Assembly: GCA_023460055.1 (NCBI GenBank)
Contig: JAEWRJ010000015.1
Coordinates: forward strand, 2,496 to 66,495
Origin: Bacillota bacterium
Lineage (GTDB): Bacteria; Bacillota; Clostridia; Christensenellales; Aristaeellaceae
Direction of reading: 5' to 3'
DNA length: 64,000 nucleotides
Positions 23,681-43,993 of the stretch are shown here, piece after piece (the first letter of the stretch is position 1; each line of letters begins with the position of its first letter). Position numbers and translations under genes: made by a program. The notes beneath the pieces were generated by a model. It was not told the origin of the DNA, made no database searches, and saw only the letters and a program-made list of their open reading frames with translations.

Positions 23681-23709
23681 TATAACGATAAAAAACTGAA
23701 TCTGTCTCA
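23681..23709 (-). promoter_or_regulatory. ECF-type promoter copy (TGAGAC-N16-CGTTATA) pointing leftwards, with no obvious gene downstream
   Basis: The minus strand reads TGAGAC (23709-23704), 16 nt, then CGTTATA (23687-23681). The architecture matches the sites at 32585 and 43965. Confidence 0.4.
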
Positions 23710-23822
23710 TTTTTTATGTAAAATTTCCGAACGTCATGTTTCTGTTGCATGAAAACACACGTTATCTTCGTTATACTAAGTGAACAGTGGAATCACTGTA
23801 GCTTCCTCATGGAGATGCCAAG

Positions 23823-24854
23823 ATGAAAAAGTTCGTTCTATGTTGTATTTTGCTCACGTCGCTGCTCTTGATACTGGGGCTGTATCTGGCAGGCCATGTA
23901 TGGAAACGTGAAAATCACGCTGCCCGTTCTGACTCCCCTGAACAGATCATTGACAACAGAACCCCGGAAATGCTTTTGCCTAAAGCATATTTTAGAGATG
24001 CTTCAGGAACGGTCCTGTTTATTAACAGCATAAATATCGAAGAGGGGGCGCTTATATCCGCTGCACCAAGTTCAGATGGCGAACCGCTTGGAAGACTGCC
24101 AAACGGAGAACAATGTTCTTTGATTTCCTTGATCGATGATTGGGCATATGTTAGAGCATCTATTAATGGTAAAAAGCAAGATGTCTATGCCATGACATCC
24201 GATTTAACGCCTTTAGATGGATCATATGGACTATATCCCGCCGGAGGCGGGGCCTATCTCGAGAATAATGCTTATCACTTCGGTAATATGCTTCCCCCTG
24301 CTCTATCCCAAACATTTACCGGAACCGAGCTGGAGGACTATCACCCTATGTTAGGGATGATCATTGCTGATGGAAGTAAAAATGCCTTTGTTATTCTCAG
24401 CAAAGACGGGCATAATGTGCTTTGTGTTTTAGAGCGGATTGAAGAAAGATGGGTCATCAAAGAAATAGGGCGTCAACTGCTATATCAGGGCGACCTGCTG
24501 CCGGAGTATTTTTACTATTCAAAGTATAATGATCAAGTCGTCTATTACTATCCTATAGATGGTAATAATCTTCAGGAGAGCTTTGGGTTACAATGTGATG
24601 CTGACGGACAATACTACTTGTCTCATTACTACTATGGCCCGGGAGATATTACCTTGAGTACCAACAAGGAAAACAACTATGCGGCAGATGTTCAAGGCGA
24701 TTTACTGATCATTTCAGATAATACAGGGAAGATGCTCAGCACTTATGGTATCAAGACGACAGTATCAATCGATAAAAATGATTTCAAAGTCTCAAATCTC
24801 GACCTGCAATGTACTCTGAACCTCTTTTTCCAATACAGGGAAAGGCCTTTCTAG
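23823..24854 (+). CDS. Membrane-anchored or secreted protein with an SH3b-like module
   Basis: N-terminal hydrophobic segment MKKFVLCCILLTSLLLILGLYLAG. SH3b-like LISLIDDWAYVRASINGKKQDVYAMTSDL. Confidence 0.7.
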   Translation: MKKFVLCCILLTSLLLILGLYLAGHVWKRENHAARSDSPEQIIDNRTPEMLLPKAYFRDASGTVLFINSINIEEGALISAAPSSDGEPLGRLPNGEQCSLISLIDDWAYVRASINGKKQDVYAMTSDLTPLDGSYGLYPAGGGAYLENNAYHFGNMLPPALSQTFTGTELEDYHPMLGMIIADGSKNAFVILSKDGHNVLCVLERIEERWVIKEIGRQLLYQGDLLPEYFYYSKYNDQVVYYYPIDGNNLQESFGLQCDADGQYYLSHYYYGPGDITLSTNKENNYAADVQGDLLIISDNTGKMLSTYGIKTTVSIDKNDFKVSNLDLQCTLNLFFQYRERPF

Positions 24855-24869
24855 TAGACAAACAGAAAA

Positions 24870-24896
24870 GACCTCCCTGCGTAATGCAGAGAGGTC
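24870..24896. terminator. Hairpin shared by a convergent gene pair
   Basis: GACCTCcCTGC-gtaat-GCAGaGAGGTC with an A-run upstream. Confidence 0.55.
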
Positions 24897-24939
24897 CCTT
24901 CAGCAAGTGTTTTCTTAGGTATAACTACATGAATTATTC

Positions 24940-26190
24940 TTAGCCGTTGCCATAATAAGGTTTACCAAAGCCGACAATATCTGAGTTAAACCTCTTACCG
25001 GGTACGTCCGGTCCAAGAGGGGGTTGGATAAAGACCTTATTGTTTCCAATCGCTTGGCTTCCCTTGGCTGATGCATTGCCTTCAATAGAAGTAATTGTCG
25101 TTCCGTTGCTACTTACATCGATTACAACACCTACATGTCGGCTTATTTTGGTGGTATCGTCTATTCTGAAGTACACATAGTCACCAATTTCTGCTCTGTA
25201 ATTCATCTCTGCGTTGGTGAGTTCCGCTTGGCTCATAAATTCTTTCAAATCAGAAAATCCATAGGCTTTTACCTTATCTTCCGCATGTACAAAATAGAAT
25301 GAATCACTTTGCAAGAAGAAACTGATACCATTCCTAACATTTGACTCCTGAGGTATATTTAAATCACCATCGAACGGCCATAAGCAATGGCATGTAATCC
25401 AATCAGCAAACCAGTGACACCAATCACCATTATTATCCAATTCCTTATTATAGTACTTTGGATTGCCGTTATGTTGGGCATTCACTTCTTGATTTGCGAC
25501 ATTTACTAGAATATAGCGTTCCATGTCTTCATTAGCAGTAGGGGGCGATAGTGTTGTCCCTAAAATGTAGGCATCTTTGTTTTTCCAACGGCATTTGAAC
25601 CAGCCATTTCCAGCATCTTTTATGACTGCACGTCTACCTTTAGGATAGTAGCCGACAATGCTGCCCGAAGTTGACGGCGTATCTCTAAGCCGCACATCAT
25701 TCTGTATTACATTTGCATATAGCCACCCGTCATACGGGCTTTCATACTCAGATTCATCCACCATAAGTGACACATTATCAAACAACGCCACGCCTTCGGC
25801 TGATCCAGCAATCAATCTAATCTCAACATTTTGCATGCCATAACCCGTAGCAGCAAATGTGTAAGATAATTCAGTGAATGATGATGTCAGTTGGGGAATA
25901 AAGGATGGGCTATACTTCCATGCGCCGTTTACATATAACATTATCCACACGTCAACGTCACCAATGATTCTTTTTACATTAAATTTTAATGTATGAGAAC
26001 CAGGCATTACACTCGCGTGAGTATATATATGGCTCTGTCCTTTTTCAGCAGGAACAGTCAGCTTTACGCATTTGCCATTGTCTATGCCTCCGGTGGCTTG
26101 ATGTTCAACTTTGTTCCCCGAATACCAGCCGTAAATGCTCCACTCGTCCATTCCACTTTCAAATCCGGGATTCTTTATTGCATTAACCAT
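24940..26190 (-). CDS. Leaderless cell-wall hydrolase: CBM4_9-like, SH3b and CHAP-like (NlpC/P60 superfamily) domains
   Basis: ATG at 26190 with SD AAGGAGAA (MVNAIKNPGFESG...); the ORF track extends to 26292. NPGFESG..W and FDNVSL are CBM-like. SH3b shows RLRDTPSTSGSIVGYYPKG..WFKCRW. CHAP-like Cys in GDWCHWFADW and His in SRHVGVVIDV...IEGN. No signal peptide. Confidence 0.75.
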   Translation of the reverse strand: MVNAIKNPGFESGMDEWSIYGWYSGNKVEHQATGGIDNGKCVKLTVPAEKGQSHIYTHASVMPGSHTLKFNVKRIIGDVDVWIMLYVNGAWKYSPSFIPQLTSSFTELSYTFAATGYGMQNVEIRLIAGSAEGVALFDNVSLMVDESEYESPYDGWLYANVIQNDVRLRDTPSTSGSIVGYYPKGRRAVIKDAGNGWFKCRWKNKDAYILGTTLSPPTANEDMERYILVNVANQEVNAQHNGNPKYYNKELDNNGDWCHWFADWITCHCLWPFDGDLNIPQESNVRNGISFFLQSDSFYFVHAEDKVKAYGFSDLKEFMSQAELTNAEMNYRAEIGDYVYFRIDDTTKISRHVGVVIDVSSNGTTITSIEGNASAKGSQAIGNNKVFIQPPLGPDVPGKRFNSDIVGFGKPYYGNG

Positions 26191-26247
26191 TTTTCTTCTC
26201 CTTCTTCTTCGCTTTAAGTTTCTGGCCAGAACTCTTAAGCTGCTTTG

Positions 26248-26282
26248 AGTATAGTATTCTCTCCACTCCAATAGCAGTGACA
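26248..26282 (-). promoter_or_regulatory. CTTCACT-N22-TAnnnT motif (variant TGTCACT ... TATACT) upstream of hydrolase gene 24940-26190
   Basis: The minus strand reads TGTCACT (26282-26276), 22 nt, then TATACT (26253-26248). Confidence 0.35.
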
Positions 26283-26795
26283 AAACAGACAAGAAAGGTG
26301 CAGGAAATAATCAGTCTTCAATAACGACTATGATCCGGTGCCTATCTATGTAAGCTTAGGTGAATGGAAAGAAGAAAAAGTGCTTTGTCCCAGAGCTGTA
26401 GAACAGAGCCTATATTGGCTTTGCTGTATACAACGTTTCCAAAATATGCACTTCACCGTCAATTGGTAAGTATCGTATAAAAGCTGTCGTTTCAGGTGGC
26501 GGGGAGACAGCGACAGCTTACTCTGCATCCATAAAGAAGTAGTGCTTTCCGGAAATTTGCTGTCGAGTAGACAGGCGGCCTTACGGCCCCTGCCCCTCAC
26601 AGAACCGTACTTGCCCTATTAAGGAATACGGTTTTTCAAACAGTCTTTGGGATCCAAATGTCAACATAAATACGGGGTGGCGTCACATATTCTTTTCAAA
26701 TCTGTCTGAACAGTTCAATGTATGAGTTTCGCCCAGTGTTTGTGCAGATTACGGGCTGATCCATCTGTCAAATGTTTCCTATTTCGTGCTGGTTT

Positions 26796-26830
26796 CTTCA
26801 CTACTTACTGAGATGCGTGTCTATTAGTAT
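26796..26830 (+). promoter_or_regulatory. CTTCACT-N22-TAnnnT motif upstream of hydrolase gene 26895-28835
   Basis: CTTCACT (26796-26802), 22 nt, then TAGTAT (26825-26830). Confidence 0.45.
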
Positions 26831-26894
26831 TGCGGTAGAGAAGAACAGAAAATAAAGTCTGCACATTCTCATAATTTATAGGAGGAAACATAAA

Positions 26895-28835
26895 ATGGCA
26901 GAACTACTAAAAAATGGCAATTTTGAAGGATCTAGCCCAATCTGGCAACTTAATGGGTCGGCAGCAATTGTAAGTGATGGACATGCTATGAATAATAGTC
27001 AGAAGTGTCTTCGCTTTATAAATCCAGCGCAAGGAGGAGAGCATTATGCGTCGCAGCCAATAAAGATACAGCCTGGAACGTATGGTCATGTAATTCTATG
27101 GGCAAAAAGAACAGGGAATATGGACCTCTGGGCATCAATTAAGATTGTAAAATCAGGCATGACAGAGTATCTTAAGAGCCCGATTATGTCTGATTATGTC
27201 AATGATACATACAGAACTATGCTCTGGAATTTCGATATCCCAGCCTCAGCAAGCCCTGATGCTGAGGTCAGAATATATGCTAAAGGAATGTCTGGGGCTG
27301 CAGGAACAACATGGGTAGACTATGTGTCGTGTAACGGATCGGAGTATGTACCACTCCCCGATCCCGGCCCGCATCCCTCAGGTATTGACCACCTCGAAAA
27401 TCCCAGTTTTGAGTCTGGCACGTCTCCTTGGACCTTTAGACAGCCGTCTCAGGTTATAACGGATAGCGTCAATGCGAAGAAAGGCAGCAAAGTCCTGAAG
27501 TTTCCTTATAAAGAAATCGCTGGTATGCAAGGCGCGTATCAAACGGTTAGGCTTGTACCCGGCAAAACATATATTTTTTCATTCTACGCAAAAAGAAGCG
27601 GTCGAATGGATATCTGGGCAGCATACTCATATTATGATGCCAGCGGTGCTTACCAAGTTGTGCATGGGCCTTCGCTGTTGAATGCTATACCTGATACCAA
27701 CACCTACAGGAGACAGGAGTACCGATTTACTGTGCCTGAAAGCGCTAAAGGACCATACAGCATATTCATCAATGGAGGAAACACGCCAGGTGATTCTGGT
27801 GTCGTTGGTTATGTTGATGATGCGATTCTTGTGAATACTGATGGCTCTGCACCTCCGTATAAGGAAAAGAATGGCTGGGTAGTTAACGTCAACAGTGATG
27901 GACTAAAAATCAGACATACAGCTAATGGAAGTGAAAAATTCAAGCTTTCCTATGGGGAAAAGGTTCGTATTGTAAATGAGACTCAAGTTGGCGCTGTTAC
28001 CTGGTACAACATTATTGATAGGAGAGATCGGGACGGCTGGGCAGATGGTAGCTATATTTCATTCACCGATCCGTTTCTTGCGCCTGGATTAACATATGTA
28101 CGTGTAATACGTGATAATGCTGAGGTCCTGACTTCTTCTGGCGCTATCATTGATGGCAATCATATTCTCCCCTTACACCGTATCCTGATCGCAGAGCCGT
28201 ACAATAGTGATCTCTACAAAATCAGGTATAGAGGATTAGTTCAATACATAAGGCGGTCGGATTGTGAGGTAATGCAAACTTACCTTTCAAACTGGCATGT
28301 GCCGAGAATAGCGGTGATTGCAGGTCCGGAAGAAGGAAGATCAAATAGCGTGTACTTTGATGGATATGCGGGTGTTACTTATCAATGGTGTCATCGTTTC
28401 GTGGATTGGCTTTACCTGAGCGCATATGTAAATAGGGACCTTATTCCAAACACTGCCGGAACAGCAGAAGGGATCAGATTCTTTATTGAGGAGTATGGTA
28501 GTTCAGGCGGTATAGGGAAAACATTCTGGTTTGTGAGTCAGTCTCTCAAAAACAACTTTTTAAACGAGTACACAACTATCAATGTCCCTCATGGATTAAC
28601 TGATGAAGAGAGAAACTTTATTCCACAGGAGGGCGATTATATATACTTCAAGTTTAACAATGGTGTGAATGAGGTGGTAAGCCACGTGGGATATGTGACG
28701 GGTGTTACCTCGACTCATGTTAATACGATTCAGGGAAATGTCAACAACATGGTCGTTAGAAGGGGATATAGCCTGGGAGACGTTACTATTTTGGGATATG
28801 GACGTCCTAAGGTAGGATATCAAGATCTGGGTTGA
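26895..28835 (+). CDS. Leaderless cell-wall hydrolase: two CBM4_9-like modules, SH3b modules and a C-terminal CHAP-like domain
   Basis: MAELLKNGNFEGS..W and ENPSFESGTSPW start two CBM-like modules. SH3b shows GLKIRHTANGSE...WYNII and YVRVIRDNAEV. CHAP-like YQWCHRFVDW ... SHVGYVTGV...IQGN. SD AGGAGGAA upstream. No signal peptide. Confidence 0.75.
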   Translation: MAELLKNGNFEGSSPIWQLNGSAAIVSDGHAMNNSQKCLRFINPAQGGEHYASQPIKIQPGTYGHVILWAKRTGNMDLWASIKIVKSGMTEYLKSPIMSDYVNDTYRTMLWNFDIPASASPDAEVRIYAKGMSGAAGTTWVDYVSCNGSEYVPLPDPGPHPSGIDHLENPSFESGTSPWTFRQPSQVITDSVNAKKGSKVLKFPYKEIAGMQGAYQTVRLVPGKTYIFSFYAKRSGRMDIWAAYSYYDASGAYQVVHGPSLLNAIPDTNTYRRQEYRFTVPESAKGPYSIFINGGNTPGDSGVVGYVDDAILVNTDGSAPPYKEKNGWVVNVNSDGLKIRHTANGSEKFKLSYGEKVRIVNETQVGAVTWYNIIDRRDRDGWADGSYISFTDPFLAPGLTYVRVIRDNAEVLTSSGAIIDGNHILPLHRILIAEPYNSDLYKIRYRGLVQYIRRSDCEVMQTYLSNWHVPRIAVIAGPEEGRSNSVYFDGYAGVTYQWCHRFVDWLYLSAYVNRDLIPNTAGTAEGIRFFIEEYGSSGGIGKTFWFVSQSLKNNFLNEYTTINVPHGLTDEERNFIPQEGDYIYFKFNNGVNEVVSHVGYVTGVTSTHVNTIQGNVNNMVVRRGYSLGDVTILGYGRPKVGYQDLG

Positions 28836-28852
28836 TTATAACAGGTAGATAA

Positions 28853-28893
28853 ACAGGCCCTGATGGTAATAGCTTGTTACCATCAGGGCCTGT
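28853..28893. terminator. Perfect 17-bp hairpin shared by a convergent pair
   Basis: ACAGGCCCTGATGGTAA-tagcttg-TTACCATCAGGGCCTGT. Confidence 0.7.
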
Positions 28894-28895
28894 AA

Positions 28896-29657
28896 TCATT
28901 CAATATACATCTGCATGATGAAGCAAACGAAACCGTTTGGGTACCTGATTTCATACCATCCATCCAGAACAGCAATACACTCTACATACGGATTTTTCAT
29001 GGTCTTAGGCGAATCACTTCCTTCAGTAGGAGAGGAAAGAGATGGATATGAATGAAGGAAGTACGTCCATAAACTTTGATCGAATTTTATTTTACCGATT
29101 GTGGGGAAATTGAAATAATTGCCATACATATCATTTAGCAGAGTATCCTTCTTCATAATAAAGCCATTTACATTTCCGAGTTCAATATAGAACCAATTAT
29201 CAATTTCACCATAAATGCCAAGAATTGTACCATCGAGATAGGTAGCAATGACCTCAGCCTTTTCATCAGCTACATCATATACTTTGATCTCACCGGATTT
29301 ATCGAAGGCTGAAACAGTCGCAATGGGGGTCTCTTGTTTAACATCTAAGTACTTCACTTGATCCATATTTACATCGTCCCGACGCATATAACCGCTAATA
29401 TCGCTTAGTTTTGTGTCAAAGTATTCGGAGCTTCGGAAAATAATGTAAACCCAATCATCTAACTCATCATAGATACCGAAAGTAAACCCGTTAAACAAGT
29501 TGAGCGTGATGTCAGATTTAACGTTTGGGGCCTTATAAAGAGGGGCTGTCGACGAGTTCTCGACCTCGACCGATCCCAAAGACATTCCAGCCGATAGAAC
29601 ATCCGGCGCAATAGATAGAATCAAACATACTGATAAGAGGAAAGATAATGTCTTCAT
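28896..29657 (-). CDS. Secreted protein made of three SH3b-like repeats
   Basis: ATG at 29657 with SD AAGGAGAA. Signal peptide MKTLSFLLSVCLILSIAPDVLSA. Repeats end in WVYIIF.., WFYIEL.., WYEIRY... Confidence 0.7.
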   Translation of the reverse strand: MKTLSFLLSVCLILSIAPDVLSAGMSLGSVEVENSSTAPLYKAPNVKSDITLNLFNGFTFGIYDELDDWVYIIFRSSEYFDTKLSDISGYMRRDDVNMDQVKYLDVKQETPIATVSAFDKSGEIKVYDVADEKAEVIATYLDGTILGIYGEIDNWFYIELGNVNGFIMKKDTLLNDMYGNYFNFPTIGKIKFDQSLWTYFLHSYPSLSSPTEGSDSPKTMKNPYVECIAVLDGWYEIRYPNGFVCFIMQMYIE

Positions 29658-29700
29658 GTCGCTTCTCCTTAAATAATCAATGGTCATCGTTCTGCATATA

Positions 29701-29730
29701 TATAACGGGGCAACATGCTGATTTGTTGCA
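29701..29730 (-). promoter_or_regulatory. ECF-type promoter variant (TGCAAC-N17-CGTTATA) directly upstream of gene 28896-29657
   Basis: The minus strand reads TGCAAC (29730-29725), 17 nt, then CGTTATA (29707-29701). The ATG is about 45 nt downstream. Confidence 0.4.
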
Positions 29731-29848
29731 TTATTTGTTTATTTTGGTGAAAGAGCCATAACACCTAATGAAAATATAATCCTTTATCTACCATTTGGGG
29801 ACAGAAATCTGTATAACGATGGCTTATTATACCGTGCTCCGACTATTT

Positions 29849-31135: not shown

Positions 31136-32326
31136 CTATTTTATCAGTGTGTATTTGTGCATCAAAATAGCCGCATTAGTCACCGTCTCATCTTGAGATG
31201 AAAGAATAATGAACTCATCCTTATTATTGGTTGCTACATTCGGATATCGAACTGACTTAGCTAACTCTTCAACCAACTGCATATCACCATTTTTTGTAAT
31301 ATGGTACAACTTAGGAGGATCGGTACGAGCGTAAGAATCAGTAAGGAAAACAATACCATTGTTGAGACTGATAATAGGCTTGACAATATGTTCTGAGGTG
31401 ATTGGCAACTTTGATTCATGCTTTGTCATTAAATCCAAAGAATCAATTACTGAAATGAAAATAGACTTAGTAGTGTCATAATCATTACTGAAAACAAAAA
31501 TACCATCACTACTTTCGATTGCATTTTGGAAAGTACCAGGGAGAGGAATAAGGTATGTAGCAGTCAAATCACAACGATTATCAATCAATGCAAGCATGAT
31601 TCCATCGAAAGCCATATCTCCGAAGAATAATGTGCAACCATTTTCACTTTCAATAACATTATAAAGAGTATATTCATTTTCAGTAATGTGATGAACTTTT
31701 GACTCGCCACTAAAGGTGTTTATTACTTCAAACTTCGTGGAGCGCGGTATATCTGGTTCCTTGAAAGCCTTAATGGTAAACGAAGCAGTGTAATACGAAG
31801 TACTCACATCTGCTTCATCTCGCGTTTTGATTGGACCTTGATGTAAGACTTTTCCATCATAATCGATAATGGTTTCTGTAAAGTAAGTTAATGAGGAATC
31901 ATCATACACAACCAAACGCAGCCCTTCTTTTTCAATGCTTACATCATATGACCGAAGCATATTGTCAGCTGCTTCAGTGAATAAAAAGAACTCCCACAAC
32001 AACTCGCCTCCTGCATTGATACATACCATATACTCATTAGCAAAGTTATCGTTAATCCGAATGATTGAAAATACAATGTTGCCATCTGGGAGGATGATCG
32101 GTTCTTCCATTCTGCCAAACCCATATGCGTTCACCGGCAGTTGCTTTTCTACCGAGAGCATGATTGATGAACCAATGTTAAGGATTGCATCAGAGTGATC
32201 AATGTTATTTGCTTCTGCCTGTACAGCGTATGTGCGGCCGAAAATACCACATAATATGATAAATGAAAGGACTAAACAAGCGATACTGCGAAGAATATTG
32301 GTTGAATCTGAAAGCTGTGTTATCAT
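31136..32326 (-). CDS. Secreted or anchored protein of unknown fold
   Basis: 396 aa. N-terminal hydrophobic segment IACLVLSFIILCGIFG followed by AVQA-E. SD AGGAGGAAAG upstream. No other motif recognised. Confidence 0.7.
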   Translation of the reverse strand: MITQLSDSTNILRSIACLVLSFIILCGIFGRTYAVQAEANNIDHSDAILNIGSSIMLSVEKQLPVNAYGFGRMEEPIILPDGNIVFSIIRINDNFANEYMVCINAGGELLWEFFLFTEAADNMLRSYDVSIEKEGLRLVVYDDSSLTYFTETIIDYDGKVLHQGPIKTRDEADVSTSYYTASFTIKAFKEPDIPRSTKFEVINTFSGESKVHHITENEYTLYNVIESENGCTLFFGDMAFDGIMLALIDNRCDLTATYLIPLPGTFQNAIESSDGIFVFSNDYDTTKSIFISVIDSLDLMTKHESKLPITSEHIVKPIISLNNGIVFLTDSYARTDPPKLYHITKNGDMQLVEELAKSVRYPNVATNNKDEFIILSSQDETVTNAAILMHKYTLIK

Positions 32327-32419: not shown

Positions 32420-32584
32420 CATTTCGGTGAGGTGGAATATCGCTCTAACCAAGTTAAATAACAAGAAGTATCTTTCCTTTAAAAACCTATTTTCACCCAA
32501 AGATGATAAGCAATGGTGTAACGAAGATAAGGTGTGTTTTCAGGCGATAGAAACTTGACGCTCAGAAATTTTACGTTCAAAAAA

Positions 32585-32613
32585 TGAGACAAAACCAGCT
32601 TTATATCGTTATA
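32585..32613 (+). promoter_or_regulatory. ECF-type promoter (TGAGAC-N16-CGTTATA) pointing at 32779-32955 and 33077-34141
   Basis: TGAGAC (32585-32590), 16 nt, then CGTTATA (32607-32613). Confidence 0.45.
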
Positions 32614-32778
32614 TATATAGATGACATAGTCATTGACGCCGAAACAGGAAGTTAACAGATATTGCCCATACAAAAGATGGGTACATGGCATGAATCGCAC
32701 CTGAACGCGCGTTATATGATTGTGCAGGCTGATGACACGCTAAAAGAGGCGTAGTCGGTGGAAGGAGATAGTAGTTGT

Positions 32779-33076: not shown

Positions 33077-34141
33077 ATGAAGAAATTGACTCAAACAATC
33101 GTGCTCCTTTTCCTCGTCAGCGTTGTGATGACCGCCTCTGCTAATCAGTTTAACGTTCACGGGGGCCTTTATGACGCCCTTGTTGAAAAGCTTAAAATAT
33201 ATGACGGCTATATGGCTGATGATAAATCACAAACATCTCCGGACAAAAACACTAACATTGCTATTCTGTTCGACTATTCCGGAAGTGATCATGCCCAGCT
33301 TTTAATTGGTAAGCAAGTTGGCAAGAAGTGGGAAATACACCATTCGTCAACAAAAGCCGTTTATCAAAAAGGGGTTAAGCCCTCAGTGGAGCTAATTAGC
33401 AGCGTAAACGGTGGTTTCATTTTAAAGTACCAAGATGAACAGTATGAGTTCCTTCCAAACGATCAAGATCAGTATATCCTGACTACTGCCGATATTGCCG
33501 CGGTTGAGTACAATCTGGACAAGACAGCTGGGATTTATCATGTTAAGAGCGCAGACCAGGCAATAGAGTGGCGCGCAGCACCGATTACTCTCGATGATTT
33601 TAACATTACACTGTTCCCAAAAAGCGTCAATGAAGCGCAGGCATACAATGCAATTTATGGCAAGCTCTCATCTTTGTCATTCTCAGCAAGAAACAGAGAA
33701 ATTCTTATGCAACATGCTGGCAGTAAAACGACCGCCGTCTATTCAGCGCCAAGTGAGCAATCCTATCGAGCGTCAAAGGGAAAAGCTGCTGTTAATTTAG
33801 AAAGTAGCTTATGGCTTCTTGGAACTGAGGGGGACTGGGTTCTGATTAGATACGCCATCAACAATAAGTCTGAGCGCATTGGTTATGTCCAATCCAGGCG
33901 ATTCGCTTATTTGCCCCCTGATATCAGCATTCTTGATGACACAGAGTTTGTAAACCTCATAGGGTCCAATGATTGTTACATGACACTTGACCCGATCAAT
34001 TCCCAATCAAAAGAAGGTATCGTATCAAAGGGGGACACCATAAAGGCTTATGGATTATATGATCCCTTCTATGTGTATGTCGAAAGTTCAATATCCGGCA
34101 AATCCGCGCGAGGCTTTGTGCCAATCAATGCCTTACAGTAG
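33077..34141 (+). CDS. Secreted protein with two C-terminal SH3b-like modules
   Basis: Signal peptide MKKLTQTIVLLFLVSVVMTASA-N. SH3b-like ...GDWVLIRYAINNKSERIGYVQS and ...FYVYVESSISGKSARGFVPINAL. SD ACGGAGG upstream. Confidence 0.75.
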   Translation: MKKLTQTIVLLFLVSVVMTASANQFNVHGGLYDALVEKLKIYDGYMADDKSQTSPDKNTNIAILFDYSGSDHAQLLIGKQVGKKWEIHHSSTKAVYQKGVKPSVELISSVNGGFILKYQDEQYEFLPNDQDQYILTTADIAAVEYNLDKTAGIYHVKSADQAIEWRAAPITLDDFNITLFPKSVNEAQAYNAIYGKLSSLSFSARNREILMQHAGSKTTAVYSAPSEQSYRASKGKAAVNLESSLWLLGTEGDWVLIRYAINNKSERIGYVQSRRFAYLPPDISILDDTEFVNLIGSNDCYMTLDPINSQSKEGIVSKGDTIKAYGLYDPFYVYVESSISGKSARGFVPINALQ

Positions 34142-35316: not shown

Positions 35317-35351
35317 AGACTACTCTCGATAAAACAATTAAGGGAGTGAAG
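35317..35351 (-). promoter_or_regulatory. CTTCACT-N22-TAnnnT motif upstream of hydrolase gene 34414-35244
   Basis: The minus strand reads CTTCACT (35351-35345), 22 nt, then TAGTCT (35322-35317). Confidence 0.45.
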
Positions 35352-35452: not shown

Positions 35453-35482
35453 TGCAAGAAAGACGTATTTTCGCTCGTTATA
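35453..35482 (+). promoter_or_regulatory. ECF-type promoter variant (TGCAAG-N17-CGTTATA) pointing at gene 35635-36762
   Basis: TGCAAG (35453-35458), 17 nt, then CGTTATA (35476-35482). Confidence 0.35.
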
Positions 35483-35634: not shown

Positions 35635-36762
35635 ATGAAGAAGTTGTTATTAGTAGTGACTATAGTATCAATGCTTATGAGCACTGCAACATCAGTTGCA
35701 TACTTGTCTGATGGAACATTCGGGATAGAAAACATTCCAAATGATATAGTCGAAATTATTGATGGAAGTCGGTGGAGAAAGTGGGAAGTAACGGGGTGGG
35801 TTAATCCTAGTGGGTTAAGGAAAAATAGCGCATGTGCCTTTGCAGTCGTAAAAAGAGGCAGGGAAAATGTCCTATTGGCATTTGGATGGGATAATGGTTG
35901 GAAATATAAATGGTTCAACCCGGCTGCTCTTCCTCAAGTATATGAACCTATAATGTTAGTTGACACAAGCATTGATTTACAGCGAGAAAAAGGATTCAAT
36001 ATTGGATTTATATCCTTTTACAGCGTAAATGGAGAATCGGCTGAAAAATCATGTATATGGGGACTGGAAAGCGACGGCGCATGGAGGCTGTATCATTTAA
36101 CCAGCATTGAGCCGTTTATGATGTTTGATACATCCAAAGATAATGCAATTCGTTTATATGATGTAGGATGGGTTGATGGCGAAGAAACTGATGTTTGGGT
36201 ATATGGAAGCTATCAGAAGAATTTGCGGTTTTTTAGCCTTCGAGAGTTTCCAATGTCAGTAAAGCAAGCTCAGGAGGCTTTGAGTAATCCTCCTTCTATT
36301 CCAACAGGAAACCTAACAGCGCAGAAGATTCAATTTTCTGGTGGCTTGAAGTATAAGGTATATCAGGGACCGGGTGAAGAGTATGGACAAGCGGGTAAAG
36401 GTAAGGCTGTTGTCAGCACGAACGATTGGATTCAGGTCTTTGGAGAAGAAAATGGATGGATTTTTATCCAGTATGATATAACAAGCGATCATATGCGTAT
36501 GGGATGGATAGAGGCGAGTGCATTACCTAAAAAGGCTTCTGTAAACGAGCTTTTTTACTCACCAATAAGTGCAATAACGACTCATAACACTAACCTGACC
36601 GATGATCCTTTGTTCTCGCAATCAGGTATTTCTGTGCTTCCTATATCCACTCAAGTTATTTGGTTGGCGACAATGGGCCAGTGGGCCTATGTGGAGGTTA
36701 CTGAATCACAGCCAATTCGAGGATTTGTGCATATCAATTCTCTATCTATTTATATCAAATAA
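35635..36762 (+). CDS. Secreted protein with two C-terminal SH3b-like modules; same architecture as 33077-34141
   Basis: Signal peptide MKKLLLVVTIVSMLMSTATSVA-Y. SH3b-like ...NGWIFIQYDITSDHMRMGWIEASAL and ...WAYVEVTESQPIRGFVHINSL. Confidence 0.75.
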   Translation: MKKLLLVVTIVSMLMSTATSVAYLSDGTFGIENIPNDIVEIIDGSRWRKWEVTGWVNPSGLRKNSACAFAVVKRGRENVLLAFGWDNGWKYKWFNPAALPQVYEPIMLVDTSIDLQREKGFNIGFISFYSVNGESAEKSCIWGLESDGAWRLYHLTSIEPFMMFDTSKDNAIRLYDVGWVDGEETDVWVYGSYQKNLRFFSLREFPMSVKQAQEALSNPPSIPTGNLTAQKIQFSGGLKYKVYQGPGEEYGQAGKGKAVVSTNDWIQVFGEENGWIFIQYDITSDHMRMGWIEASALPKKASVNELFYSPISAITTHNTNLTDDPLFSQSGISVLPISTQVIWLATMGQWAYVEVTESQPIRGFVHINSLSIYIK

Positions 36763-37773: not shown

Positions 37774-37831
37774 TTGAGTAATTCTCCTTTGTTTATGCTA
37801 AGGCAGTTGGCGCCCCTTGCCTTGCAATGAA

Positions 37832-37866
37832 AGAGTAAGGCAATGATGCAGTTGATGGGAGTGAAG
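37832..37866 (-). promoter_or_regulatory. CTTCACT-N22-TAnnnT motif upstream of hydrolase gene 36862-37773
   Basis: The minus strand reads CTTCACT (37866-37860), 22 nt, then TACTCT (37837-37832). Confidence 0.45.
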
Positions 37867-38071
37867 AACAGCGAAGAAATAAGTAATTTATATGAAAGAA
37901 ATATGCATTGGGGACAAGTAAAATATACAGTTACGAATACATAGGCGCTAACGGCTCTTTCAATGTACCTAACGATTATATGTACTATTAATCAGGCATT
38001 ATGCTTCTATAAAACAGGCATTATGAGTCGTTCCTGTGCATCGAGTAGAACGATAGAATGTGCTGGGGTGA

Positions 38072-38425
38072 TTGATGATGCCTGCTAAGGCAAGGGATCT
38101 CTCTGGCATTGGGGGAGTACTAAGTAATGCAAGGAGAGTTTTAGGACTATCACAGGATAAACTAAGCGAGAAATCTCGGATTAGTATTAGACACATTTCA
38201 AAGATTGAGAACGGTGATGCTGACCCGTCATGGAGCACTTTGTGCAAATTGCTTGAAGTGTTGAGAATTGACGCCAATTTACTGTTCAATCTCAATCCAG
38301 ATATTGATCTGGATGACAAGATAAAGAATGAGCTTACCTCTATTTTTGATTCTTGTAACAAACCGAATAAGCTGAGATTAATTAGGATTGCAAAATGCTT
38401 GGCTGATGAGGATTTTGGTACTTAG
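38072..38425 (+). CDS. XRE-family helix-turn-helix regulator
   Basis: LSNARRVLGLSQDKLSEKSRISIRHISKIENGDADPSWSTLCKLLEVL is a classic HTH_3 pattern. The exact start (TTG 38072, ATG 38075 or ATG 38078) is uncertain. Confidence 0.75.
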   Translation: MMMPAKARDLSGIGGVLSNARRVLGLSQDKLSEKSRISIRHISKIENGDADPSWSTLCKLLEVLRIDANLLFNLNPDIDLDDKIKNELTSIFDSCNKPNKLRLIRIAKCLADEDFGT

Positions 38426-38458
38426 CAGAGTACCTTGACTAATAAATGGAGGATATGA

Positions 38459-39022
38459 ATGCCGGGTCGGCGGGATAGGGATAATCTGATAACATCGCTC
38501 TACGAAAAGTACTATGATTACCTGGTAAGCTGCTGCTGCAATAAACTCAGTTCTTATAGCCATGAAATGCATAATATGATTGAGGACATCGTACAGGAAG
38601 CTTTTGTTGTAGCAGTTGATCGTTATGACCAGTTGCAGAACCATCCAAATAAAGTTGGTTGGCTGCTTCAGACTTGCTACTACAAGATGAAGAATGAGAA
38701 TACTGAAATTATCAAAAGGCTCAAGGCTAGTGCGTTTTCGATTGATGAAGATGAATCGCCGGACTTAGCTGATCCCAAGGACGTAATCAAGGAGCACGAT
38801 GATGAGGAAGAAACCACGGAGCTGATACAAGCCATCAAGACAACCATTTCACAAAGGGATATGCTTCTTTTTGAGGAATATTTCGTTAAAGATCATTCCG
38901 TAAGTATTACTTCTGCCAATACTGAACGCACGGAACATTCTGTTAGAAACTCTATCTATCGTATGCGTCAAAAGGCAAAGGAAATTCGCAAAAAATATTT
39001 CTCGGAAAGTGAGACTTTTTGA
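38459..39022 (+). CDS. Sigma-70-family (ECF-like) sigma factor, paralogue of 44892-45452
   Basis: Region 2-like DIVQEAFVVAVDRYDQLQNHPNKVGWLLQT. Region 4-like TERTEHSVRNSIYRMRQKAKE. SD TGGAGGA upstream. Confidence 0.7.
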   Translation: MPGRRDRDNLITSLYEKYYDYLVSCCCNKLSSYSHEMHNMIEDIVQEAFVVAVDRYDQLQNHPNKVGWLLQTCYYKMKNENTEIIKRLKASAFSIDEDESPDLADPKDVIKEHDDEEETTELIQAIKTTISQRDMLLFEEYFVKDHSVSITSANTERTEHSVRNSIYRMRQKAKEIRKKYFSESETF

Positions 39023-39076
39023 AATGCATGGAAATAGTGTATTGGGGAGGGATGCAACATTAAGGATAGCAAGCTA

Positions 39077-39925
39077 TTGCCGCAAAAATATAACCTAAAC
39101 GCTATCAATGAGATGATGAAAGACGGCCATCTGACAGAAGATGAGGCCGATGCTTTGCTTATGCAGTTAATCCAGCAAGAGGAGTTAAAATCCTATGATC
39201 AGCAAGACTTTTCAAAGCTTGCGGCATATGAAAAGATGCTTTTCGAGCTGAGGTCTGGAAGACCTCTTGCTACAAGGAAGGAGGAAGGCAGAAAGAAATT
39301 AGATAAGTATTTATCGGAACATCCTGTAAAGAAGCGTAGCTTTCAACCTGTCTATCGCATGGTGATTGTATTGGCATCAATGGCTTTGTTGGTCGCTGCC
39401 ATAGAAGTGATATTTCCTTTGGAATGGCTACATGGCAATCCGAGCAATGATCAGCAGCAGTACATCATTCAAGGCGAAAGCATTGATCCTCAAGTGATCG
39501 CTCAAGGCAAGGCGGATGAAAATACTTCTGACGATAGCATAACAACGACCAACCTTGATGAAGCGATCAATTTATTGGGATATACGCCTCAATATCCAAG
39601 ATGGATACCAGAGGGGTGGAAGATATTACAGATAGACGCTAAGCGTTCTAAAATGACAGACTATATCTCAATAGCTTATAGCATAATATCTACTGATCAG
39701 ATTCTCAGATATGATGAAATAAGGTTTAAGGATGCTGACCAAGCGATTATTGAGTTTGAGCAGAATGGCATAGGAAAAAAGATGAATGTAGCAGGACAGG
39801 ATGTATACATGACCATGAATACTGATGCGCCAGTTTGCATCTGGCAAGTTGGTTTGATAAATCGATCAGTGTTTGGACCACTAAGTGAAGAGGATATTAT
39901 TAAGATAGTAGCATCTGTAAGATAA
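39077..39925 (+). CDS. Membrane anti-sigma-like protein with a DUF4367-like extracellular domain
   Basis: Single TM MVIVLASMALLVAAIEVIF. C-terminal PRWIPEGWKIL...W..G...S..GPLSEEDIIKIVASV matches the DUF4367 pattern as I recall it. The start (TTG 39077 or ATG 39113) is uncertain. Confidence 0.6.
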   Translation: MPQKYNLNAINEMMKDGHLTEDEADALLMQLIQQEELKSYDQQDFSKLAAYEKMLFELRSGRPLATRKEEGRKKLDKYLSEHPVKKRSFQPVYRMVIVLASMALLVAAIEVIFPLEWLHGNPSNDQQQYIIQGESIDPQVIAQGKADENTSDDSITTTNLDEAINLLGYTPQYPRWIPEGWKILQIDAKRSKMTDYISIAYSIISTDQILRYDEIRFKDADQAIIEFEQNGIGKKMNVAGQDVYMTMNTDAPVCIWQVGLINRSVFGPLSEEDIIKIVASVR

Positions 39926-39937
39926 GAGGAGGTTTAT

Positions 39938-40336
39938 ATGACTAATAAACGTTTGATAATTCTAGTGGCTCTTGTAATGATTCTTTCCATTTCCGCTCCT
40001 ATAAACAATATATACGCATCAGGAGCCGAGCCATATGCAAGTCCAGTTTTTGCTTCAGCTTCTGTTAGGCTATATAGTGATTTTTCCGTTAATTTTTACG
40101 CTAGTACGCGAGTTGTATGTACTATCTCGGTCACTAGTTGCGTTATGCAAAGAGAAATTAACGGTAGTTGGTCTGATTTCAAAGCCCTCGAGGTTCCTGA
40201 CGGAAAAAGTAATGCAATTACGTATGATGTAGACAAAGACTATGATTCACCATCTAGCGGGAAATATCGTATCAAAGCTGTTTTCTCAGGTGGAGGTGAG
40301 ACAGTAACGAGATATTCGTTAGCTATAACAAAATAA
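39938..40336 (+). CDS. Small secreted protein (Ig-like?)
   Basis: Signal peptide MTNKRLIILVALVMILSISAPINNIYA-S. SD AGAGGAGG upstream. Last gene of the XRE-sigma-antisigma operon. Confidence 0.65.
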   Translation: MTNKRLIILVALVMILSISAPINNIYASGAEPYASPVFASASVRLYSDFSVNFYASTRVVCTISVTSCVMQREINGSWSDFKALEVPDGKSNAITYDVDKDYDSPSSGKYRIKAVFSGGGETVTRYSLAITK

Positions 40337-40701
40337 TAGCTTAGTGGATATCCGGCTTTATTGTAAGAATACAATAAAGTCTTTTTTATTGCACGAAATG
40401 ACTATTGAGCTACGTACTATATAGTGCTATGGTATTTGACTTTTGTAAAAGAGTGATCGAGGCTGAGCAAAAGCTCGATTTCTCATGCTGTAAAGTTGTT
40501 TACCTTCTTTATGCATGCAATGATGCTATGTTATCTAACCGCTTCTGCGGACTATATAATCGAACCAAACGATAAAGACTCATCTGGTCAGGAAGCCTTG
40601 TACGTTGCAGAGTATGAGTTCCAACAGTTATATGCAAGATCACAGGCTGAGTTTTCTAGCGTTCCGCCGTACTCTTTTACTTATCACTTGATATACTCTG
40701 A

Positions 40702-41330
40702 AGAGAAAACGCAAATGTATGGGTATATAGCTTTTTCAGGTATCCTTCTGATGAGTTTATTGCCAGGCGTGACTGGCGGAGGCTTGCCCGTGACCGAAAG
40801 CCAAGGCGATATAAGATACGCAAAGCGCTTCGGCAGCAGTTGAACTATGTCAGGCGTAACCTTAGTTATCTGGAAACAATCCTGAACATTCACCCGGAAG
40901 CGCTGAGTGTGAAAGGCCTGGATTGCTTTTTATGTGATACAGACGATGTATGAGCAGATATACAAAATAATGAAATTGTTGAGCTGAATTTAACGGGATA
41001 TTATGATGATATGTTCATTGAGTTTGTTAACTGCATTGTGTGGGATGATGGAGGAGAAGACTAAATCACTTTCTTATTATATTTAATAATCATTAGAGAA
41101 TGTCGATTCGGTACGGGCTTGATCTGCGCTTACACAGCTGGAACGTAGCAACGAAATGGACATCCATGCCACTGTTCTGAACTGCGGCTTGATCCGGGGG
41201 ACCCAATGGGATTTGACTTTGACCCTTAGAATCATATGATGTGTTAATCTCAAGTAAGCTTGGCCCCTCCGGATTTGCTGATACAAATACCTGGAAGAAC
41301 TAATTCTCTCCAAACACAAATAACCGAAAT
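40702..41330. mobile_element. Degenerate IS5/IS1182-like transposase remnants: two frameshifted fragments in opposite orientation
   Basis: Plus-strand frame 40702-40953 reads ...ARRDWRRLARDRKPRRYKIRKALRQQLNYVRRNLSYLETIL...LS, continuing after a frameshift as YEQIYKIM. Minus-strand fragments read ...LPGICISKSGGAKL and ...PRIKPQFRTVAWMSISLL. Both resemble the middle and C-terminal parts of IS1182-type transposases from memory. No intact ORF. Confidence 0.4.
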
Positions 41331-41368
41331 GATGCTTTCAGATCCTCAATAGATGAACCCCGCACAGT

Positions 41369-42406
41369 TCATTGTATCAGATTAGCCTCTCCCGTTCCCG
41401 CATTTACAGACATGCGATACACCACTGTATCACCCTCATAGTACCTCACCTCATACACAGGGGCCTCTCCTTCGTCCCGGAAGAACATAACGCTGCGTTT
41501 AAGGGAATTATGTGCATCAATATTTACATTTCCTAATGCATACATAACTTGATCAGCCGCTTGCTTTGCCTCATGCACTTGTACTTCATCCTCCCGAGGC
41601 AGGCTATGCCTATGAGATAGGATCGTCTTAGCAAACGGGGGAAGCTCACCATACTTTTCTAACTCACGCTGATAATTGCTTATGAGCACATCATAAAATG
41701 ATTGCTGATCTTCAAGCGGCCAATATCTAAACAGGATTTGATTCCGCTCAGCTCTCCATTGAGCATAGATATTGTACATGCTGCTGACATCATCGCATGA
41801 TACTTGAACATATGTTTCATTAAATATTTCGGCGCTAAAAACCGGGACGCGGGGATAATCATCATGATAAAAGCTTATCGTCCATAGGGGCGAGGGGTCA
41901 TGCCGCACATACATTGCTTTCGCGGTACATTCATCCAGCATACTGATATCACAAGGCAGAAGACCTGCGCTGTATTGCTCAATGATCCCTTCTCGTGCCA
42001 TAGCAACTGCTTCTTCTTCACTTAATCCGTCCTCAGGCGGCAATAGATATGATACTTGATTTTCCAACCCGCTTTCAAAGGCCGCTACACTATACCGATG
42101 GCTTTGTTCCAGTGTCCAATAGCGGTTAGGGCCATATGCCGCCTCACATATCGCGAAAAAGGCAGAGATTGGCGATGACCATTGATATTCATTCAATTCA
42201 TCCTTTTCTGCGATCAAGCCGTGCTTTTGAGAAAGTTGTAAGAATACGCTCTGTTCATTCTCGCCCCATGTTTCAATGCTGATTTGGCTTGTCAGCTTAT
42301 TCAGATCGGTAAAGAATCCTTCAATATCTTTAGTCGATGTATCCGAATATGCGATGGAATACGTAAGGATCATCGCCATGACCAGGCAAACCACTCTTTT
42401 CACCAC
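41369..42406 (-). CDS. Secreted protein with a C-terminal PepSY-like module; third gene of the ECF operon
   Basis: Signal peptide MVKRVVCLVMAMILTYSIAYS. The C-terminus ...EAPVYEVRYYEGDTVVYRMSVNAGTGEANLIQ is PepSY-like. The start overlaps the anti-sigma stop. Confidence 0.65.
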   Translation of the reverse strand: MVKRVVCLVMAMILTYSIAYSDTSTKDIEGFFTDLNKLTSQISIETWGENEQSVFLQLSQKHGLIAEKDELNEYQWSSPISAFFAICEAAYGPNRYWTLEQSHRYSVAAFESGLENQVSYLLPPEDGLSEEEAVAMAREGIIEQYSAGLLPCDISMLDECTAKAMYVRHDPSPLWTISFYHDDYPRVPVFSAEIFNETYVQVSCDDVSSMYNIYAQWRAERNQILFRYWPLEDQQSFYDVLISNYQRELEKYGELPPFAKTILSHRHSLPREDEVQVHEAKQAADQVMYALGNVNIDAHNSLKRSVMFFRDEGEAPVYEVRYYEGDTVVYRMSVNAGTGEANLIQ

Positions 42407-43440
42407 GTTCCGTTCCCTCCCTCATTTTTCTCGAGGACATATAGTCCTTCCCGTCTGATAAATAGCAATCGCTCCATAACCTCCCCTGTATCTATATCGA
42501 CAAGCTCCGCACGGATATTTTGCGGGAAAGCCTGCCCGTACTCTTGGTAAGGCTGAATGACTGCTCCATCCTGATCATAAAATATCACATCCAGATTCCG
42601 TACGGCAAATGGCAGGGTTTGGTACCGTGTATCGACCTCTATGTCCGCATAGGTCCGCAATGCTGTCTTTTCAAAGCCTAACCGTGTTATTACAATATTG
42701 GAATGCTCAAAATGGATCGGCTCCTGTATGTGTACAATGTCTATCACATCTGTGATATCAACGGTGAAAGGTATCTGCAGCTTCTCACGGATGATAGTCT
42801 CTCCCTTTAAGTAAACAACCGCGACATTCATGGCTGCATCAACAGCAGCGGAGTGTGACTGATGTCTAAGTTCAGCAAGGAAGATCATCTCTCCTTCGCC
42901 AGGCTTTTGTAAATGATAAAACTCATGGTTACCCGCCCCGCTTACCAACTCAGCCGTAACCATATACACAGGGTCAGAGCTCTGCTTATCACGAGCATGA
43001 CGTTCAAGATCAATGCTATCATCATAAAAATCAATCTGCGCGCGCGCTTCGGTTGTTATAATTCTAAGCCCTGCGGTGAGTACACGCGCATCAGCAATGG
43101 CTTCAAACAGCTCGATACGCATGCTGATGCCTTGCAGATCCGCGGCGACAAGGCTCTTATTGCTTTCAAGATCATTATCCTGATGATAGGACATGCTCAT
43201 AGAATCAAATCGGTCTGCAAGCCACGCGCTTATAGCGGATCGATGATACCAGGCAAGCGCAGATCCGGTTACAGTCAGTATGAATACGACCAGCACGGCA
43301 ACCAATACACGTTTTTTTCTGTAATGGCGCGTTGGTCTTATTGATTGCCGAACGATATCTCTGCTGCTCTCTTTGAAAACAACCTCTGATAATGATCCGT
43401 CAATTGTATTTGTTACTCTGTATCTCATATTATTATCCAT
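42400..43440 (-). CDS. Membrane anti-sigma-like protein
   Basis: 346 aa with a single TM VLVAVLVVFILTVTGSALAWY after a short cytoplasmic N-terminus. The start overlaps the sigma stop by 8 nt. Confidence 0.6.
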   Translation of the reverse strand: MDNNMRYRVTNTIDGSLSEVVFKESSRDIVRQSIRPTRHYRKKRVLVAVLVVFILTVTGSALAWYHRSAISAWLADRFDSMSMSYHQDNDLESNKSLVAADLQGISMRIELFEAIADARVLTAGLRIITTEARAQIDFYDDSIDLERHARDKQSSDPVYMVTAELVSGAGNHEFYHLQKPGEGEMIFLAELRHQSHSAAVDAAMNVAVVYLKGETIIREKLQIPFTVDITDVIDIVHIQEPIHFEHSNIVITRLGFEKTALRTYADIEVDTRYQTLPFAVRNLDVIFYDQDGAVIQPYQEYGQAFPQNIRAELVDIDTGEVMERLLFIRREGLYVLEKNEGGNGTW

Positions 43441-43945
43441 TACTAATCACCTCCTTTATTAAGGATTCAGCCTTTTTAATTCGGCGTTGTACTGTTGAGT
43501 GCGATACCCGGATAACACCGGCAACTTCACGTATTGTGAGGCCCTGGTAATAATGGAGAAGGATAACGTCTTTATATCTTATTGGTAAGTTGACAATGCA
43601 GGAAAAGAGAGAATCTCTATCTATAATTGCGTCAAGGTCATGGTTAGCATCCTCCAGCTGCATCGTATGAACAGGTATATTCATTCTCTCTTTGCGGTAC
43701 CATGAGGATCGGAGAATGTCTTTACATGTATTTACGGCAATGCGCATGATCCATGCTCGCTCAAAATCAATGACCGGCAGTTTATCAATGTTTGCGGCAA
43801 CTTTTACAAAAGTATCCTGAGACGCATCTTCAGCCAGCCCCCGATCACGCAAATAGACACAGCATACCCGGGCAACAGAGTTCCCGTATACACTCATAAT
43901 TCTCTCAATTTCCACGTTTACATTAACTTCATGTTTTTGCGTCAA
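43433..43945 (-). CDS. ECF sigma factor
   Basis: TTG start after SD GTGGAGGG. Region 2 AEDASQDTFVKVAANIDKL...WIMRIAVNTCKDILR. Region 4 LHYYQGLTIREVAGVIRVSHSTVQRRIKKA. Confidence 0.8.
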   Translation of the reverse strand: MTQKHEVNVNVEIERIMSVYGNSVARVCCVYLRDRGLAEDASQDTFVKVAANIDKLPVIDFERAWIMRIAVNTCKDILRSSWYRKERMNIPVHTMQLEDANHDLDAIIDRDSLFSCIVNLPIRYKDVILLHYYQGLTIREVAGVIRVSHSTVQRRIKKAESLIKEVISNG

Positions 43946-43964
43946 TTACATTGCCCTCCACTTA

Positions 43965-43993
43965 TATAACGAAATAAAACCGGCTTTGTCTCA
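43965..43993 (-). promoter_or_regulatory. ECF-type, presumably autoregulated promoter of the sigma/anti-sigma/PepSY operon
   Basis: The minus strand reads TGAGAC (43993-43988), 16 nt, then CGTTATA (43971-43965). It sits about 10 nt upstream of the SD of the ECF sigma gene. AAC-like -35 and CGT -10 with a 16-nt spacer is the canonical ECF geometry. Confidence 0.55.

Follow-up and report, generated by a model that had tools for sequence, protein, structure and literature searches.

The 64,000-nucleotide window studied here (positions 2,496 to 66,495 of contig JAEWRJ010000015.1, assembly GCA_023460055.1, from a Bacillota bacterium of the family Aristaeellaceae) contains a mobile island on which genes for wall hydrolases lie beside genes for exported partner proteins, together with an operon for a sigma factor of the extracytoplasmic function (ECF) type. 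We think it probable that this island carries two classes of ECF promoter, one of which (class A) belongs to the sigma factor of the island, and the other (class B) to a sigma factor of the type encoded on the host chromosome at contig C160. The assignment of each sigma factor to its class builds on the rule that ECF sigma factors control their own genes and on the way in which sigma clades and upstream motifs vary together; the activity of the sites as promoters is likewise predicted from sequence comparison.

Two motif classes and two sigma clades

Class A consists of an A-tract, TGAGAC, 16 nt and CGTTATA. A search of the window gave three exact copies of TGAGAC-N16-CGTTATA (Table 1), which are also all the copies in the 2.74-Mb assembly (0 expected), and 100 dinucleotide-preserving shuffles contained none. 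The boxes AAAA-TGAGAC-A and T-CGTTATA-TA are invariant in the three copies, 7 of the 16 spacer columns vary, and the flanks are not conserved three ways. Invariant boxes with a free spacer and free flanks are the pattern expected of a two-box promoter, with the caveat that the three copies are related by duplication and are not independent.

Copy 1 lies directly upstream of the ECF sigma gene, whose product we call ECF170. This protein matches Sigma70_r2 (residues 20-82) and Sigma70_r4_2 (residues 112-159) in Pfam, with no match to region 3 or region 1, and scores 70.7 bits with TIGR02937 (cut-off 42.9); it thus has the composition of group 4 (sigma-2 plus sigma-4 in about 170-200 aa). In the profile search it remained below all equivalog and subfamily cut-offs (SigV, 62.9 versus 190; SigW, 60.5 versus 209; the best subfamily score, with PRK11924.1-5, was 142 bits versus 259). 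No close orthologue was found in 401 genomes of the order or in a collection of 5.8 billion proteins, where the best match was 44% identical. For this reason we turned to 76 homologues with 28-44% identity, found in the same family and order, and set their upstream regions side by side, along with those of the paralogues in the host. In 75 of these 76 cases, the island included, the sigma gene is followed by an overlapping or adjacent gene whose product has about 45 cytoplasmic residues and one transmembrane helix, which is the usual architecture of an anti-sigma factor. The candidate on the island begins with a 44-aa cytoplasmic stretch and then has one transmembrane helix; it has no Pfam or NCBIfam match and no recognised anti-sigma domain. 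The third protein of the operon has a C-terminus that resembles PepSY below threshold (20 bits versus a Pfam cut-off of 24). The first-pass annotation had suggested that an anti-sigma/PepSY module might sense envelope damage; of the two parts of such a module, the first is a candidate by architecture and the second a match below threshold.

Of 47 non-redundant genes in the clade of the island sigma, 43 carry a CGTC/T-(T/A)-A-(T/A) box at a distance of 22-38 nt from the start codon, usually 27-32 nt, with a strong ribosome-binding site after it; control windows of double width gave 8 of 47. The -35 zone varies by paralogue around the form AAATGxxACAAA. Copy 1 (aaaaTGAGACaaa, 16 nt, CGTTATATA) fits this layout, its -10 box beginning 26 nt before the TTG start of the sigma gene, with a GGAGGG ribosome-binding site behind it. 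ECF sigma factors usually autoregulate, and their promoter motifs are group- and subgroup-specific (Casas-Pastor et al. 2021, PMC7826278). Very probably, copy 1 is the autoregulated ECF-type promoter of the island sigma, as the first-pass annotation had proposed from the sequence of the window. The "classic AAC" geometry that it had also seen there has to be given up: the -35 box reads GAC and not the canonical AAC, and the relatives of the clade vary at this place (GAC, AAC, AAA, GTA).

Class B consists of TGCAWSAAA, 14 nt and CGTTATA. In its shorter form, TGCAWS-N17-CGTTATA, its exact sites in the genome number six, where base counts would predict about 0.3; three lie on the island, one before the C160 sigma operon and two before genes for chromosomal secreted proteins (contigs C133 and C158). 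Over 121 genomes of the family, TGCAWSAAA-N14-CGTTATA gave 36 matches versus 1 for a reversed control, and the motif is present in at least 17 of 72 sampled genera. The 30 matches outside this genome lie 0-150 nt upstream of genes for sigma orthologues or signal-peptide proteins (two or three are unclear). The genes behind them include orthologues of the C160 sigma gene (58-65% identity) in five genomes, orthologues of the C133, C51, C60, C99 and C158 signal-peptide proteins and, in another genus, a 47%-identical homologue of the island protein 35635-36762.

The homologue comparison ties this motif to one group of sigma genes, including the C160 gene of the host, which carries TGCAAG/TGCATG-AAA, 14 nt and CGTTAT upstream. 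In a maximum-likelihood tree these C160-type sigma factors form a clade (support 100/97) in which 12 of 16 members have class B self-promoters, and the branch between this clade and that of the island sigma has 100/99 support. The candidate cognate sigma factor for class B is present in the same genome, encoded by the C160 gene behind a class B site of its own. The island is missing (58-bp match only) from two genomes of this genus (96% complete), yet their chromosomal class B sites are retained.

A weight matrix trained only on 11 class B self-promoters from other genomes (training sites score 19-33 bits) ranks the island sites at 35453, 23746, 29730 and 32687 third, fourth, tenth and thirteenth among about 5.5 million positions, and the class A sites below 14 bits. 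The remaining top matches precede the C160 sigma gene and genes for secreted SH3_3 or PG_binding_1 proteins; one of the secreted proteins behind the top matches has a D-Ala-D-Ala carboxypeptidase domain. All products behind the four class B sites of the island have a signal peptide or a membrane helix, and the relatives show the same layout.

The first-pass annotation had listed four sites, and they are real: the class A copies before the sigma gene and at 32585 are exact, and the N17 variants at 29701-29730(-) and 35453-35482(+) are present; the sites at 23746, 32687 and 32517 were absent from its list. It had taken the N17 sites for variants of the promoter of the island sigma, and here we disagree, given their match to the C160 self-promoter, the 100/99 branch between the two clades and the 36 matches versus 1 in the family. 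Since the perfect N17 sites of the island are of the C160 self-promoter type, three of the five partner genes are more likely under the sigma factor of the host.

Table 1. Positions of motif sites and genes (window coordinates unless a contig is given)
Feature	Position	Strand	Remarks
Class A copy 1	43965..43993	-	aaaaTGAGAC-N16-CGTTATAta; before ECF sigma operon; exact match
Class A copy 2	32585..32613	+	points to small open reading frame (ORF) and secreted protein 33077-34141; exact match
Class A copy 3	23681..23709	-	orphan at left edge of island; exact match
Relic of sigma gene 5' end	32633..32704	+	TTG ACG CCG AAA CAG GAA GTT AAC...; alignment with copy 1 and sequence read
Class B, TGCATGAAA-N14-CGTTATA (TGCATG-N17)	23746-23775	+	26.2 bits, rank 4; ends 47 nt before 23823-24854
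Class B, TGCAACAAA-N14-CGTTATA (TGCAAC-N17)	29701-29730	-	22.5 bits, rank 10
Class B, TGCAAGAAA-N14-CGTTATAtg (TGCAAG-N17)	35453-35482	+	28.2 bits, rank 3; ends 152 nt before 35635-36762
Class-B-like, GGCATGAAT-N14-CGTTATAtgat (GGCATG-N17)	32687-32716	+	20.1 bits, rank 13; follows class A copy 2 in tandem
Decayed class B (CGCCTGAAA...CGTTACA)	32517-32546	-	upstream of secreted protein 31136-32326; <14 bits
Small ORF, 58 aa, one hydrophobic helix	32780..32955	+	sequence read; GGAAGGAG ribosome-binding site
Secreted partner protein, 354 aa	33077..34141	+	signal peptide visible in ORF list
ECF (group 4) sigma factor ECF170, 170 aa	43433..43945	-	Pfam and TIGR02937
Candidate membrane anti-sigma factor, 346 aa	42400..43440	-	assigned by architecture only; 8-nt overlap with sigma gene
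Third operon gene, signal-peptide protein, 345 aa	41369..42406	-	overlaps preceding gene
C160 sigma gene	C160:14491-15018		own class B site upstream, anti-sigma-like gene downstream

If each motif is read by the clade whose own genes it precedes, class A would be the self-promoter of the island operon (ECF sigma, membrane anti-sigma and secreted protein), and class B would be read by the chromosomal C160 sigma, conserved across the family, whose presumed regulon comprises its own operon and secreted SH3b and PG_binding_1 wall-binding proteins. The perfect class B sites would place 23823-24854, 28896-29657 and 35635-36762 in the C160 circuit; the small ORF and 33077-34141 have a weaker class B site in tandem with class A, and 31136-32326 has only a decayed copy. 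Most of the exported partners would in this way be plugged into an envelope-type ECF regulon of the host, and one would be tied to the island sigma.

The site at 29701 ends 43 nt short of the start codon (ATG at 29657) of 28896-29657, which encodes a secreted SH3b protein (domains SH3_3 and SH3_4), and a gap of 63 nt separates the site at 32687 from the gene downstream. A -35 region nearly identical to that of the 32687 site precedes a secreted protein on contig C51, and the decayed copy at 32517 can be aligned as a homologue of the 23746 site. The C-terminal parts of 33077-34141, 35635-36762 and the chromosomal C158 protein are homologous, and 35635-36762 has a 32%-identical paralogue on contig C5, behind a weaker class-B-like site.

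On the chromosome, TGCAWGAAA-N14-CGTT(A/G)TA is common to the C160 sigma/anti-sigma operon and to some eight genes whose secreted products are SH3_3, PG_binding_1 or uncharacterised proteins; the class B loci are C160:14445-15931, C133:91-1131, C158:26553-27978, C60:4059-5586, C99:25780-26651, C16:16808-17607, C131:2-926 and C51:10665-12115. We came across no description of such a regulon, with secreted wall-binding proteins as its members, in the literature searched. In one relative (locus L085, G414:C21, 99 nt downstream of TGCAACAAAAAGTACCTTTTGAACGTTATA) a class-B-type promoter precedes the gene of a 176-aa sigma factor 27% identical to the island sigma 44892-45452, a hint that some relatives may have a sigma cascade; in the window, no class-B-type site was seen before 38459 or 44892.

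Weighing the assignment

Several observations weigh against the division that we propose. The -10 box CGTTATA is common to both classes and the -35 boxes are close (TGAGACAAA versus TGCAAGAAA); a common -10 box that is unusual for the clade of the island sigma, together with similar -35 boxes, means that this sigma might also read class B. ECF170 has no close orthologue (at most 44% identity) and the copies of the element are about 99.9% identical, so that its promoter cannot be checked by comparing orthologues. Matches of the TGCAAC type in the relatives (the -35 form of the 29701 site) never precede a C160-type sigma gene, and this site may belong to yet another sigma paralogue. Finally, of the 29 homologues that 35635-36762 has in other genomes, only one lies behind a strong class B site. 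Several of these homologues have different ECF-like boxes upstream, which tells us that the gene family is not bound to one promoter class and that the class is easily exchanged. Examples from other genera are L139, L142, L143, L151, L155 and L158, with CGCAACAATTC...GTCATCTAATA or GGGAAGAAA-N14-CGT... upstream, and the family of secreted proteins to which 35635-36762 belongs seems to have moved between different ECF regulons.

The most serious alternative is that there is a single promoter family, the island sigma reading both TGAGAC-N16 and TGCAxx-N17, and that all exported partners are its regulon. We consider this unlikely, even though all the sites lie on one island beside functionally paired genes, the two classes share one and the same -10 box, which the island clade does not usually have (consensus CGTCTAATA), and overlapping ECF regulons are known, as with SigW, SigX and SigM of Bacillus subtilis. 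ECF sigma factors are generally strict about spacer length and -35 box, and here the spacers are one base apart and the -35 boxes differ at three or four of six positions. By inspection, the helices likely to read the -35 box (TVQRRIKKAESLI in the island sigma, TVSSRLSRGRKKL in the C160 sigma) differ at most positions. Class B is the self-promoter of the other sigma clade and is kept family-wide in genomes without the island.

A different doubt concerns the class A copies away from the sigma gene. The homology of copy 2 with copy 1 reaches into the sigma gene as far as its first 8 codons, where the similarity in the alignment stops; the relic of the sigma gene that copy 2 carries has lost its ribosome-binding site and runs into a stop after 23 codons. 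Upstream, some 70 nt are common to copies 2 and 3, among them a CGTTATA element in divergent orientation, and copy 3 faces the terminator hairpin of a 713-aa gene, with no ORF downstream. One could therefore regard the copies at 32585 and 23681 as passive leftovers of recombination, only the copy before the sigma gene working, if any. They are indeed mosaic duplicates, one with a dead sigma ORF and the other facing a terminator without a gene, and a separate class-B-like promoter sits between copy 2 and its presumed target genes. We nevertheless think that this is quite improbable, since both boxes are intact in all three copies when spacer and flanks have diverged, and since a duplication of this kind, in front of a gene for a secreted or membrane protein, occurs independently elsewhere in this genome.

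This second case concerns contigs C32 and C145 and belongs to another element of the genome. Contig C32 encodes an ECF sigma factor 36% identical to the island sigma, with aaaaaaTGAGTA-N17-CGTTATATAAG upstream, and a 171-bp copy (92% identity) of its promoter, ribosome-binding site and first codons is found on C145, where it precedes a gene for a 445-aa membrane or secreted protein. The sigma promoter duplicated across the two contigs (C32:600-1270 and C145:1700-1900) reads TGAGTA-N17-CGTTATATAAG. Besides these, contig C32 has genes for SH3b proteins and for a 47%-identical homologue of 39938-40336, the small secreted protein.

In our preferred reading, that of two classes with two sigma factors, a class A promoter with the first 8 sigma codons has been duplicated and now stands before the small ORF and 33077-34141, the sole partner gene that has class A upstream. 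Should copy 2 be active, both would be under the island sigma and co-induced once it is released, and the tie between these genes and the sigma factor that the first-pass annotation had drawn is supported by the copy having the exact motif of the sigma promoter. Copy 3, at the island edge, would have no gene to drive.

That the motifs are housekeeping sigma-A promoters, or sites of a DNA-binding regulator, is in our view very improbable: GAGACA-N17-TTATAT can by inspection be read as a weak match to TTGACA/TATAAT, and a sigma-70 scan (at least 9/12 matches to TTGACA-(16-18)-TATAAT) called one class B site (23749-23777) at 9/12, but the scan found 54 sites versus 53.1 in shuffles and called no class A site, conservation falls on the CGT and TG..A. 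letters, as is typical of ECF promoters, the motifs precede sigma genes in dozens of relatives, and they are without the dyad symmetry expected of an operator. We rejected the sigma-A reading on the lack of enrichment over shuffles and on class A going uncalled; for class A, a recombination site or operator was ruled out by the missing dyad symmetry and by two-box conservation around a free spacer.

Class A was also sought in other genomes. The loosened pattern TGAGWM-N16/17-CGTTATA gave 15 matches in 120 genomes of the family versus about 40 for the control, that is, no enrichment, and the three matches that were inspected all fall in coding DNA. In 185,579 species genomes, ATGAGACA-N14-TCGTTATATA gave 6 matches (roughly 17 expected by chance from base counts), of which four clearly arose by chance; in two Clostridia genome bins, genes for secreted proteins follow the motif. 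In one of them (L037:4939-6789, roe deer caecum) it precedes the gene of a 137-aa secreted protein, divergent from a pair encoding a 200-aa sigma factor and a DUF4367 anti-sigma-like protein, an arrangement like that of window 38459-40336; the L037 sigma factor is unrelated to the island ECF sigma, and this single case may be chance.

The island and its hydrolase genes

The flanks of the window have a GC content of 0.55-0.64, and between about 10 and 48 kb there is a low-GC stretch (0.35-0.49) with a relaxase-like gene, an integrase gene (47034-48470) and cargo genes; a glycyl-tRNA synthetase gene lies just beyond it. Other contigs with the same element are about 99.9% identical, and one base differs in the island part. 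The island itself is 20.6 kb long and has nine copies of the heptamer CGTTATA (0.44 per kb), versus 155 in the whole genome (0.057 per kb), about an eightfold density. Between 23.8 and 37.8 kb there are five convergent pairs, each made of a gene for a wall hydrolase or wall-binding protein (domains CHAP, Amidase_6, PG_binding_1 and SH3_3) and a gene for a signal-peptide protein, with terminator hairpins between the convergent partners. Further along follow the sigma/DUF4367 operon 38459-40336, the ECF sigma operon 41369-43945 and two more sigma-like genes.

Neither class A nor class B is found upstream of the hydrolase and wall-binding genes. Motifs resembling (T)TCTTCACTCC (CTTCACT) occur upstream of five of them, at 26796, 29849 and 44053 (+) and at 35351 and 37866 (-); none was seen before any secreted partner gene, nor on the minus strand before 24940-26292. 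The first-pass annotation had put exported partners and hydrolases on two different regulatory circuits. The separation holds, in that the promoter types differ (ECF-type versus CTTCACT), while the number does not: there are at least three types, and the sigma factor of most partners is probably not that of the island.

The island has three further sigma-like genes (38459-39022, 44892-45452 and 45719-46267), two of them 33% identical to each other and one of these two followed by a gene for a DUF4367 protein, and the CTTCACT motif is a candidate target promoter for their products. An intergenic fragment at 26429-26539 matches the C-terminus of 39938-40336, the small secreted protein, over 37 aa (68% identity); it is a gene remnant within the 602-nt spacer that separates two hydrolase genes.

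Known parallels and what the wiring would mean

The SigW, SigM, SigX and SigV promoters of B. subtilis have TGAAAC, TGCAAC or TGTAAC, 16-17 nt, and CGTA, CGTC or CGAC, and their sigma/anti-sigma operons are autoregulated. The island resembles such ECF operons of Firmicutes in its two-box promoter (16-17 nt between the boxes, CGT as part of the -10 box), in the position of the promoter directly before a sigma gene translationally coupled to that of a single-pass membrane protein, and in the extra promoter copies before envelope or secreted proteins. It differs in its -35 box (TGAGAC, without the AAC core), in a -10 box extended to CGTTATA, in an anti-sigma candidate without a recognised anti-sigma domain, in a sigma factor at most 44% identical to any protein found, and in that the operon is cargo of a mobile element.

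The lysozyme-sensing SigV-RsiV pathway of B. subtilis, Clostridioides difficile (CsfV) and Enterococcus faecalis pairs an ECF sigma factor with a single-pass anti-sigma protein, as the island would with its candidate. Peptidoglycan hydrolases would be an obvious possible signal for the island pair too, and its output could be protective; however, its 346-aa protein has no RsiV-type domain, and the outputs are secreted SH3b-like proteins and not wall-modifying enzymes. Horizontally acquired genes are known to be wired into host regulons, for example on the Salmonella islands controlled by PhoP or SsrB. The accessory genes described here similarly carry recognition sites for what would be a regulator of the core genome; unlike in Salmonella, this regulator is an alternative sigma factor and not a transcription factor, and the link is drawn from motifs only. 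The logic is also that of Casas-Pastor et al. (2021, PMC7826278), in which motifs of ECF groups and subgroups are predicted from self-regulation: in our comparison each sigma clade keeps its own upstream motif, and the split of clades agrees with the split of motifs; our two clades, in contrast to that scheme, are taken from our own tree and are not numbered ECF groups.

We regard this as ordinary ECF biology, and think that the instructive detail is a mobile island that mixes an ECF circuit of its own with promoters of an ECF regulon conserved in the host. We suggest tentatively, as a possibility that we would not call probable, that the element keeps the exported, possibly protective, partners of its hydrolases under the envelope ECF sigma of the host by promoter mimicry, with the duplicated promoter of its own sigma factor added before one of them. 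Two ECF sigma factors, one from the island and one from the chromosome, would then control the exported partners of five wall-hydrolase genes, and the hydrolases would be on neither circuit. That one genome shows a sigma promoter copied before a gene for an exported protein in two separate instances, independent of each other, points to promoter copying as a simple route of regulon growth. If the proposal is true, capture of a regulon by promoter mimicry and promoter duplication would place an arsenal of hydrolases and partners under dual stress control, and a set of look-alike motifs would become a testable wiring diagram for an element of uncultured-type gut Clostridia.

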